From: a virus
Taxonomy: Duplodnaviria > Heunggongvirae > Uroviricota > Caudoviricetes
Length of the DNA stretch: 39,804 bases
Virus record (IMG/VR): IMGVR_UViG_2734482775_000002
Span: 1-39,804 of that record
Direction: 5' to 3' (one strand)
The first letter of the stretch is position 1; each line of letters begins with the position of its first letter. Made by a program: the position numbers. Shown here piece after piece: positions 36,001 to 39,000 of this stretch.

Positions 36001-39000
36001 GACAGGAATATCGCCGGACGCTACGACAGATAAATGAAGCTCTGGAGACAAACAACTGGCCAGCACCGATTACCGAAAGTTATACCGACGAATTAAACGA
36101 CTTTGATCTTCGTCGTCTTGAAGCACTGAGCATCTGAGGAAGGACACAATGAACGAATTAACTCAACAAGAAAATATTAACTCTAATGTTGCGGTTTTCA
36201 GCCCTCAGTCCCTGGCTGCAATTCAGACATTTTCCCAGGTAATGGCTTCCGGCATGGCTACTGTACCGGAACATCTCCGGGGAAATCCATCAGACTGCAT
36301 GGCCATCACCATGCAGGCGATGCAGTGGCAAATGAACCCTTACGCAGTAGCTCAGAAAACTTTCGTTGTGAATGGTGTGCTCGGATATGAAGCGCAACTG
36401 GTTAATGCCGTAATCAGTACTCGTGGGCCGCTAACCGGGCGTATTGAATATGACTGGTTCGGGCCGTGGGAAAAAATTATCGGGAAATTTGAAATCAGGA
36501 AGAACGACAAGGGGAAAGAATATCGTGTACCTGGCTGGAAGCTGGCCGATGAAAACGGGATCGGTGTTCGCGTCCAGGCAACACTACGCGGAGAGAGCAA
36601 GCCACGCGTACTGGAGTTACTTCTGGCGCAGGCCAGAACACGTAACTCAACGTTATGGGCCGATGATCCTCGCCAGCAGCTTGCCTATCTGGCTCTGAAA
36701 CGCTGGGCGCGCCTTTATTGCCCTGAAGTGATTCTTGGAGTGTACACCAGGGACGAACTGGACGAACCACAGGAAAAAATCATTAATCCGGTTCAGGAAC
36801 ATAAAAACACATCCGCCTGCCGTGCGGAACGTGAAACAACAATTATTGAGCAAGATGCCGGGGAAAACTGGATCAGTGCTTTCCGTGAACGTATTGAGCA
36901 GGCACAAAGCACCGGAGAAACAACAGCACTTCGCCAGGAAGTGGAAGATCATAAAAATACACTTGGCGCTCTCTACACAGAACTTAAAGGAAAAGTGGTT
37001 CAGCGTCATCACCGTCTCAATGCTATTGCCCGTATTGAGAAGATGATAAATGACCTGCCTTCATCAGGTGATCCAGAAGCAGAACAAAAATTTATTGCTC
37101 TGGAAAATACGCTGAATGCTGCACGACCACATCTGGGAGAATTATATGAGGCGTATAAAACGACACTGACAGATATGAAACCAGAATATATCGGCTCCTG
37201 ATATTTACTATGGCGGTGTAGCCTCACCGCCATAACAAAACTTTATTTTATGAGAGAAAAGACAATGCGGTATGAAAAAGTCAAACCATGTCCGTTTTGT
37301 GGTTGTCCATCAGTAACGGTGAAAGCCATTTCAGGATATTACCGCGCAAAGTGTAACGGATGCGAATCCCGAACTGGCTATAGTGGAAGTGAAAAAGAAG
37401 CACTCGAAAGATGGAATAAACGAACTACTGGAAATAATAATGGAGGTGTTCATGTATAAAATTACTGCCACTATTGAAAAGGAAGGTGGCACTCCTACTA
37501 ACTGGACAAGGTACTCAAAAACAAAATTAACCAAATCAGAATGCGAAAAAATGCTCTCAGGTAAAAAAGAAGCAGGCGTTTCCAGAGAGCAGAAAGTAAA
37601 GCTGATAAATTTTAATTGCGAGAAGCTTCTGTCCTCGTGAGTTGCATTATATACAAATTAGAACTTCATAGCTGATTATTAAAAATCAACCACACCCGCC
37701 AGTATTCTGTATATTTACTGGCGGTCATATCGTAAGAGGTATGGCAATGAATCTTGTGACACTAAAAACGTGGGGAAAACTCAGATATCCAGATAACCCA
37801 CCATCAATATCAACGCTGAGACGATGGGCAAGGAATGGAAACATTTATCCTGCACCTGAACTACACGGGAGGAGTTACAGGGTGGTTCCGGAGGCTTTCT
37901 ATATCAACCCAAATAAGGTTGATACCGATATAACACACCATCAGCCTAATGGGCGACAAGGGAGAGACAGTCCGTTACTGGAGAAGTTAAAACATGCAGC
38001 GGAAAAAATACGATCCCAATTTGCCTAAAAACTTAACATATCGAAGGAGGGACAAAGCATATTACTGGCGCAACCCTCTTACGAAAGAAGAATTTACACT
38101 AGGTAAAATTTCAAGAAGAGATGCAATCGCGCAGGCAATTGAAGCAAATCATTATATATACAAAAACTACTCTCCTGCTGCCTTAATTGAAAAACTTAAA
38201 GGGTTCGACTCATTTACTATGGCAGACTGGATTGAACGTTACAAAACGATTCTTATAAGGAGAAAAGTGTCCAGAAATACTTATAAAATTCGGGGAAATC
38301 AACTGGAAACAATAAAAGAAAAATTAGGAGGGATCTTACTGACAGAAATAACCACTCGCCATATTGCCGAGTTTCTTGATTTGTGGATTGAAGGAGGGAA
38401 AAACACGATGGCAGGATCAATGCGTTCTGTGTTATCTGATATGTTCCGCGAAGCCATTGTTGAAGGGCGTATATCTCAAAATCCAGTAACGCCAACAAGA
38501 GCACCGAAAATAGTAGTTACAAGAGAACGGCTGAAACTAAAGACATACAACTGCATCAGGGAGGCAGCAGATCAACTTCCGGCATGGTTCCCATTAGCTA
38601 TGGACTTAGCCCTTGTAACAGGACAACGTCGCGAAGACATAACGAATATGCGGTTCAGTGATATTTATGATGATCGTCTTCACATCAGGCAAATTAAGAC
38701 AGGAATGATGATTGCTATCCCCCTGTCACTCAGCCTTCCGGTCGCTGGTTTACGTCTTGGTACAGTAGTTGAACGGTGCCGCCTGGTAAGCCGGGGAGAT
38801 TTTCTAATCAGTGCCGGGATTAGAAAAAACAGCCCTGACGGCAGCATTCACCCGGACGGCCTGACAAAAAAATTTGTCGCAGCCAGAAAATTAACAGGTA
38901 TCCAGTTCAGTGAAAACCCACCAACTTTTCACGAGATCAGAAGCCTGGCTGGACGATTATACAAAGAAACATGTGGAGAAGAATTTGCTCAGCGTCTACT

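Follow-up and report, generated by a model that had tools for sequence, protein, structure and literature searches.

The window analyzed here, the whole 39,804-nucleotide (nt) stretch of IMG/VR record IMGVR_UViG_2734482775_000002 (Caudoviricetes), is a Rac-like lambdoid prophage with terminase and head genes that match induced Escherichia coli phages. It contains a recE gene and, immediately downstream, in the slot that recT occupies in the Rac prophage of E. coli K-12, a gene for a 350-amino acid (aa) protein, the putative annealase with which this report is concerned (Table 1). The length of its open reading frame (ORF) is far above chance expectation, the start codon follows the recE stop codon at a distance of 11 nt, and a Shine-Dalgarno sequence, GGAAGGA, lies 4 nt 5' of the ATG. 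An initial annotation had described the product as a divergent Bet/RecT-family annealing protein with an added C-terminal tail, an exchanged partner beside a RecE that is conserved. We find instead that the annealase and the nuclease domain of RecE appear to have been acquired together, and that the type of tail follows the type of nuclease.

The Pfam RecT model (PF03837) matches the annealase over residues 30-209 with 147.9 bits (gathering cut-off 24; E=3.5e-43), covering profile positions 2-190 of 198; against the same model, K-12 RecT and λ Bet score 188.9 and 115.6 bits, respectively. All four PHROG matches are RecT-like, among them PHROG 561, 'RecT-like ssDNA annealing protein' (E=1.6e-145). 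RecT is the sole Pfam match, the ERF, Rad52 and Sak families giving none at E<=1, and neither ERF nor Rad52/Sak nor Sak4 is found among the PHROG matches; the profile comparison with RecT/Bet, ERF and Sak that the initial annotation had suggested thus points to RecT. A scan of NCBIfam yielded no RecT equivalog match to the annealase, and a sequence search of the Protein Data Bank (PDB) nothing relevant, the best match being DesR (E=0.35). In an alignment of 32 relatives, the motif W170..P174..L178..A182..ARL(187-189)..G197.Y199..D202-E203 is invariant or nearly so; it is also the sole stretch that can be aligned with λ Bet (W143..P..L..ARL..G.Y.KDE), so that the core block recognized in the initial annotation is real. 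The adjacency to an exonuclease gene by which the RecT/Redβ superfamily is recognized is present as well, with the C-terminus of the RecE upstream matching PDB 3H4R and the PDDEXK-like Pfam family DUF3799. With 4707 clusters matching at E<=1e-3 (50%-identity representatives), the family is large. By family membership, the product is an intact, predicted DNA-annealing protein of the RecT family, of the Gifsy-1/EHAP1 subtype.

Within the superfamily, the annealase is distant from both well-known members. BLASTP detected no similarity to K-12 Rac RecT (b1349; E=0.36), in agreement with the earlier observation that the gene in the recT slot is unlike canonical RecT. Comparison of the 32-sequence alignment with hhalign, too shallow for placement at an effective number of sequences (Neff) of 2.0, gave a probability of 0.4% against the single K-12 RecT sequence and, under the same limit, of 1.3% (E=0.039) against the single λ Bet sequence, where the last core helix alone aligned. 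For subfamily placement, this comparison was replaced by a hidden Markov model (HMM) built from 141 diverse relatives, which gave 8 bits for λ Bet and -2 bits for K-12 RecT; neither the similarity to b1349 expected of a K-12-type RecT nor membership in the λ Redβ/Bet subfamily was found. Because the Pfam model matches all three proteins and the subfamily scores are low, the annealase is, as judged from its sequence, neither Bet nor RecT in the narrow sense and represents a third branch of the RecT/Redβ superfamily. Full-length affinity was found to the RecT proteins of Gifsy-1, HK225, PHB10 and Rac-SA53, with 48-63% identity over 97-100% of the length (48% for Gifsy-1 and for HK225), and many close relatives bear the legacy name 'enterohemolysin'. 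In the words of Iyer, Koonin and Aravind (2002) as quoted in PMC8093625, EHAP1-like proteins are a distinct E. coli/Salmonella subgroup of the superfamily; our EHAP1-like assignment is based on these legacy names and on the Gifsy homology, not on the original EHAP1 sequence.

Three parts can be distinguished in the protein. The alignment of the 32 relatives shows a strongly conserved core (aa 1-213), a gappy and variable linker, and a conserved C-terminal region. Among the conserved residues of the tail are LG..L.TELK.K (272-282) and, close to the C-terminus, DMKPEY (342-347). An AlphaFold model computed from 32 sequences (mean predicted local distance difference test score, pLDDT, 67.6) has several strands and a long helix (174-190) in the core at pLDDT 55-80, disorder at residues 193-237 (pLDDT below 50), and a confidently modeled helical domain at residues 237-347 (pLDDT 85-90). 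The top PDB match of the core in Foldseek is the Redβ N-terminal domain (7UJL), a weak one (E=0.044). The earlier description of a RecT/Bet-superfamily annealase with an extra C-terminal domain therefore stands, the domain being the helical region of aa 237-350. The ratio of nonsynonymous to synonymous substitution rates (dN/dS), taken from comparisons with three of our sampled loci (L054, L008 and L017; dS was saturated in most others), is 0.018 for the core (against L054) and 0.24-0.27 for the tail, indicating that both are under purifying selection.

The gene upstream combines two kinds of sequence. Compared with K-12 Rac, the DNA of the window is 86% identical at 32379-32998, spanning ydaE, racC and the start of recE, and 88% identical at 33329-34835, spanning recE codons ~113-615; no homology to K-12 Rac was found at 32999-33328 (recE codons 3-112) or at 34836-37243. 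In the protein alignment, residues 118-600 of the window RecE are ~90% identical to K-12 RecE, and the Rac-like portion consists of residues ~58-615 alone. The C-terminal 430 aa show 29% identity to K-12 RecE across 133 aa, and no K-12-type nuclease domain (residues ~564-866) was found in the window RecE. On the K-12 side, the break falls at RecE residue ~590, just N-terminal of the crystallized nuclease domain. NCBIfam names the whole window RecE exodeoxyribonuclease VIII (1540 bits), a score that derives from the N-terminal ~600 aa. Conversely, the nuclease domain of the window is 52% identical to that of the HK225 exonuclease, 44% to Gifsy-1, 45% to PHB10 and 98% to Rac-SA53, and the profile of this domain type matches PDB 3H4R in two pieces around an insertion, beginning at residue 5 of the chain. 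Each of these four exonucleases is followed by a RecT of 361-371 aa, namely the four full-length relatives of the window annealase given above. The window RecE is thus, at the level of sequence, a chimera in which a Rac-type N-terminal region is joined to a predicted Gifsy-type 5'-3' nuclease domain, with the crossover exactly at the domain boundary.

The replaced 2.4-kb block consists of the nuclease domain and the annealase; one of its edges coincides with the domain border of RecE, and the other falls in the recT-ralR spacer. The portion of RecE relevant to pairing is thus not conserved in the window and co-varies with the annealase; and since the block carries a Gifsy-type nuclease domain together with a Gifsy-type annealase, the pair appears to be cognate, co-acquired as one module. 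In K-12, the RecE nuclease domain alone substitutes for full-length RecE, and RecT binds RecE, not λ Exo (PMC11611040). Of the initial annotation's divergent annealase mismatched with a conserved RecE, the divergence is upheld and the mismatch is not, as the nuclease domain was replaced along with its partner.

Table 1. Features of the recE-annealase region and its flanks, in window coordinates
Feature	Position	Strand	Remarks
recE, 1048 aa	32991..36137	+	immediately 5' of the annealase gene
5' part of recE, Rac-type N-terminal region, itself mosaic	32991..34835	+	DNA identity to K-12 recE
3' part of recE, Gifsy-1/HK225-type PD-(D/E)xK nuclease domain, aa ~616-1048	34836..36137	+	Pfam DUF3799 PDDEXK-like; 3H4R match
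recE-annealase spacer	36138..36148	+	Shine-Dalgarno GGAAGGA, read from sequence
Annealase gene	36149..37201	+	ATG start, 350 aa plus stop; RecT-family recombinase, EHAP1-like / Gifsy-1 type
Annealing core, aa 1-213	36149..36787	+	Pfam match 30-209, invariant columns; holds W170...ARL...G.Y..DE helix
Variable, predicted-disordered linker, aa ~214-236	36788..36856	+	pLDDT below 50, gappy alignment
C-terminal helical domain ('G-tail'), aa 237-350	36857..37198	+	candidate module for docking onto the Gifsy-type nuclease domain
Resumed Rac homology	37244..37690	+	ralR 37250-37459, DUF1187/rcbA-like gene; 92% DNA identity to K-12
Antitoxin small RNA RalA	37458-37636	-	Rfam, 212 bits

To trace the tail, loci were retrieved at the DNA level, using the best 80 IMG/VR loci from each of two scans, one seeded with the nuclease domain and the other with the tail; a tail-only, word-indexed protein search gave 9 fragments. 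Among the nuclease-seeded loci, the tail is present in every downstream gene that is complete within its locus, mostly behind an EHAP1-type core, with a RecT-type core in four loci (L055-L058) and a PHROG 3657 core in one (L070). In the reverse direction, a Gifsy-type nuclease lies upstream in 75 of the 80 tail-seeded loci, of which 59 contain an EHAP1 core and 15 a RecT core, 1 being truncated; the five remaining tail-seeded loci are deletion remnants, two of which retain the last 26-61 codons of a Gifsy-type nuclease. The tail therefore occurs on three kinds of core: EHAP1-type, canonical RecT-type (Aeromonas phage pAEv1818, L055-L058 and L096-L110), and phrog_3657, which has no Pfam match (L070). 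The annealase core of pAEv1818 is 31% identical to K-12 RecT (E=3e-26) and shows no similarity to the window core, whereas in residues 261-367 this protein shows homology to the tails of the window and Gifsy-1 annealases (33-36% identity, E 1e-12 to 1e-14); the exonuclease upstream has a C-terminus 78-79% identical to those of Gifsy-1 and HK225.

Seven phages combine an EHAP1-type core (46-66% identity to the core of the window protein, of Gifsy-1 or of PHB10) with some other nuclease, and none of the seven carries the window-type tail. In TL-2011b, phiV10 and Yersinia phage vB_YenM_29.18, the core is paired with a compact K-12-type nuclease, which in TL-2011b and the Yersinia phage shares 49-53% identity with the nuclease domain of K-12 RecE; in phiSG1, PalY7, PvVp04 and an EBPR podovirus it is paired with other partners. 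A second type of tail, not related to the window-type tail, is common to the first three phages (42% identity, E=6e-25). In the family at large, about 8 of the 150 best representatives align past residue 300. Tail type thus follows nuclease type and not the annealing core, as far as the sampled sequences indicate.

The second tail (L089, TL-2011b; L093, vB_YenM_29.18; L006, phiV10) is ~90 aa long and contains the pattern ..AFTSAA.N..(S/T)V.ELDK..KY... The 'recET fusion' of phiV10 corresponds to the exo and ssap genes of TL-2011b joined in one ORF, with a tail 97% identical; the idea that phiV10 lacks a tail owing to this covalent fusion was rejected, the TL-2011b-type tail being present.

We consider it highly probable that the window encodes a Gifsy-1-type RecET two-component recombinase within a Rac-like lambdoid E. 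coli prophage, and that exonuclease and annealase form a matched pair, tail docking included. In such a system, the nuclease would resect a double-strand end; the N-terminal core (aa ~12-210), of a putative RecT/Redβ fold, would coat the 3' overhang and anneal it to complementary single-stranded DNA (ssDNA); and the tail (aa 237-350), on its flexible linker, would hold the annealase on its own nuclease, allowing it to be loaded as the overhang emerges. By analogy, the tail may dock the annealase onto the Gifsy-type nuclease domain as the C-terminal domain of Redβ does on λ Exo. The Redβ domain binds both λ Exo and SSB, the binding protein for single-stranded DNA (PMC6393309). A 2023 review regarded the use of C-terminal domains by RecT-type annealases for exonuclease binding as still an open question.

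Several observations weigh against this reading. What connects the tail to binding of the nuclease is co-occurrence alone, and the sampled loci are redundant, many being near-identical, with few independent lineages: about two in which a RecT core carries the tail and about one in which a phrog_3657 core does. The core was modeled with moderate confidence, and its structure matches that of Redβ weakly (E=0.044). Furthermore, the pAEv1818 tail has 33-36% identity to the tails of Gifsy-1 and the window, and the pAEv1818 nuclease domain 78% identity to that of Gifsy-1; the tail is far more diverged than the nuclease, so the two are not diverging in step. The same poor correlation would suit a tail that binds host SSB or another replisome protein instead of the nuclease and owes its association with Gifsy-type nucleases to inherited linkage, and in Redβ the SSB site of the C-terminal domain overlaps the Exo site, with SSB binding needed in vivo (PMC11611040; PMC6393309). 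Simple linkage, however, does not predict three unrelated cores between the same nuclease-domain and tail flanks, because the core lies physically between the two. In addition, TL-2011b and phiV10 infect E. coli and share the host SSB, yet they have a different tail together with a K-12-type nuclease, which argues for specificity toward the nuclease over specificity toward host SSB. We therefore regard SSB or replisome binding in place of nuclease docking as unlikely, and note that the two activities of the tail are not mutually exclusive.

It seems very improbable that the annealase gene survives only as a functionless, decaying relic of a defective prophage. K-12 Rac is indeed defective, its recET being silent unless activated, and there are the five deletion remnants among the 80 tail-seeded loci; but the window ORF has its full length and is preceded by a good Shine-Dalgarno sequence, its DNA is 95-99.7% identical across 193 of the 5426 complete E. 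coli genomes from which all our E. coli counts are taken, dN/dS is 0.018 in the core and about 0.25 in the tail, and the terminase and head genes match phages that have been induced. Least credible of all is the replacement of recT alone by a foreign annealase, now beside a conserved, non-cognate Rac RecE in a mismatched or newly adapted pair: the identity of RecE 118-600 to K-12, the NCBIfam name of the whole protein, and the exchange of the annealase body between near-identical flanks relative to Rac-SA53 would fit it, but the nuclease domain, which suffices for K-12 RecE function (PMC11611040), is not Rac-like in the window (no K-12 DNA homology, 29% identity over 133 aa, 44-52% to Gifsy-1 and HK225), the ends of the block coincide with the domain border on one side and lie in the recT-ralR spacer on the other, and both annealase alleles found beside this nuclease are of one subtype with a near-identical C-terminus.

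Beyond the matched pair of the window, the survey suggests a broader rule, on which we are evenly divided: a portable tail specific to one nuclease type would set exonuclease-annealase pairing in RecET-type systems, with the second tail marking some K-12-type pairs. If true, a portable docking tail would answer the question left by the 2023 review, and annealases and exonucleases could be re-paired at will for recombineering. The association is in any case a cheap, testable rule for matching an annealase to an exonuclease and suggests tail swaps for double-stranded DNA recombineering pairs. Two types of nuclease domain that are unrelated to each other go by the annotation 'RecE', both preceded by one conserved N-terminal region; whether partners are compatible should therefore be decided from the C-terminal ~270-430 aa and not from the gene name. 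The tracking of nuclease type by the tail is the sole part of these findings that we consider worth experiment, the rest being an ordinary, already annotated type of gene.

Indeed, both the gene type and its arrangement are already known: the gene is annotated in RefSeq under the name 'RecT family recombinase', the subgroup was recognized in 2002, and the layout has been deposited for phage Rac-SA53. The 193 genomes with annealase DNA amount to ~3.5% of the total; DNA of the nuclease domain is present in 192, and an 801-nt probe spanning the nuclease-annealase junction is intact in 163. Another 32 genomes have the full-length Rac-SA53 annealase allele beside recE. K-12-type recT, found in 1749 genomes, is about nine times commoner than the window annealase.

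RecE itself shows several further features. Compared with 3H4R, the Gifsy-type nuclease domain is enlarged by an insertion of ~120-170 aa (window ~35050-35600; RecE aa ~700-870) that holds three similar helix motifs, ..IKKHNASLP.., ..IESYNSTL.. and ..IKEYNANLP.., and its position is the site of the disordered DNA-capturing loops in K-12 RecE (PMC11611040). Pieces of the RecE N-terminal region, which contains a conserved CxxC...CxxC motif at aa 541-557, occur in 4720 of the 5426 genomes, some of them joined to other exonucleases, annotated as '3'-5' exoribonuclease domain-containing protein' or 'exonuclease'.

The third core that bears the window-type tail is encoded on IMG/VR contig 3300011855_000048 (L070:4272-5543), behind a Gifsy-type nuclease. 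Its 285-aa N-terminal core gave no Pfam, NCBIfam or PDB match and falls in PHROG 3657, 'unknown function'. This core is widespread beside exonuclease genes in Gordonia, Mycobacterium, Acinetobacter and Clostridium phages, where it is mostly annotated as 'hypothetical' and occasionally as 'RecT-like ssDNA binding protein'; the core probably represents a family of annealases that is under-annotated.

Downstream of the annealase gene follow ralR/RalA, an excisionase gene, a λ-type integrase gene (37994-39070), the chromosomal small RNA locus SraC/RyeA-SdsR/RyeB, and yebY. The type I toxin gene ralR and its antisense RNA RalA are intact directly 3' of the annealase; RalR matches its NCBIfam model at E=4.5e-48, and its ORF call, 69 aa, exceeds the 64-aa model by 5 residues at the N-terminus. 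At the prophage edge, the overlapping small RNA genes SraC/RyeA (+) and SdsR/RyeB (-) are followed by yebY (window 39198-39342 and 39463-39804). From this adjacency, the prophage is integrated at ryeA/ryeB, not at ttcA as in K-12 Rac and Rac-SA53. Actinobacillus phage vB_Apl-pPE4 (PP818812.1) shares 16.5 kb with the window prophage at 94% identity, with an annealase 99.1% identical; the deposited host is Actinobacillus pleuropneumoniae, and one may doubt either that assignment or where the sequence came from.

Several known systems bear comparison with the window pair. K-12 Rac RecT belongs to the same Pfam family, PF03837, and occupies the same slot, downstream of recE and upstream of ralR, with an annealing chemistry that is presumably shared; it differs in its length of 269 aa, its short, unrelated C-terminus, and its partner, the compact K-12-type nuclease domain. 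With λ Redβ, the annealase shares the Pfam family, the motif of the last core helix (W..P..L...ARL..G.Y..DE), and an architecture of annealing N-terminal domain, linker and helical C-terminal domain, the last of which is the partner-binding module of Redβ (PMC6393309). The similarity to Redβ is, however, at the level of the motif alone; the Redβ partner is λ Exo whereas that of the window protein is a RecE-fold nuclease, and no similarity is detectable between the Redβ C-terminal domain and the window tail (~110 aa, spectrin-repeat-like).

Much closer are the Gifsy-type systems, namely RecE-RecT of Gifsy-1/Gifsy-2 in Salmonella Typhimurium (STM2632-STM2633) and those of HK225, mEp237, SPN3UB and PHB10, in which the gene for a large ExoVIII-like protein is followed by one for a RecT of ~350-370 aa. 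Gifsy-1 and Gifsy-2 were discovered via recB suppressor mutations, the derepressed recET orthologs suppressing the recombination defects of recB mutants (PMC3121763). The window annealase is 48-58% identical to its Gifsy-type counterparts over the full length, tail included, and the nuclease domain 44-52%. The window differs in that the N-terminal 600 aa of its exonuclease are Rac-like and not Gifsy-like (28% identity), in that the downstream genes are the ralR/RalA of Rac, and in that its protein is known here from sequence alone.

Escherichia phage Rac-SA53 (KU052037) has a chimeric RecE of the same length, 1048 aa, which shows 80% identity over the whole protein and 98% within the nuclease domain, the same gene order kil-ydaE-racC-recE-recT-ralR, and an EHAP1-type RecT with the window-type tail. 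It is integrated at ttcA with IntR, and the window prophage at ryeA/ryeB-yebY with a λ-like integrase. The body of the Rac-SA53 annealase is a different allele (63% aa identity; 43-72% DNA identity over 36141-37040), set between nuclease-domain DNA that is 96-99% identical and a last ~160 nt of the annealase gene that is 97% identical (95-97% when ralR is included). The window and Rac-SA53 thus have two annealase alleles of the same subtype beside one nuclease domain, with the C-terminal ~50 residues common to both, which indicates that annealase exchange has occurred in a limited sense, within a compatible subtype and with the extreme C-terminus kept.

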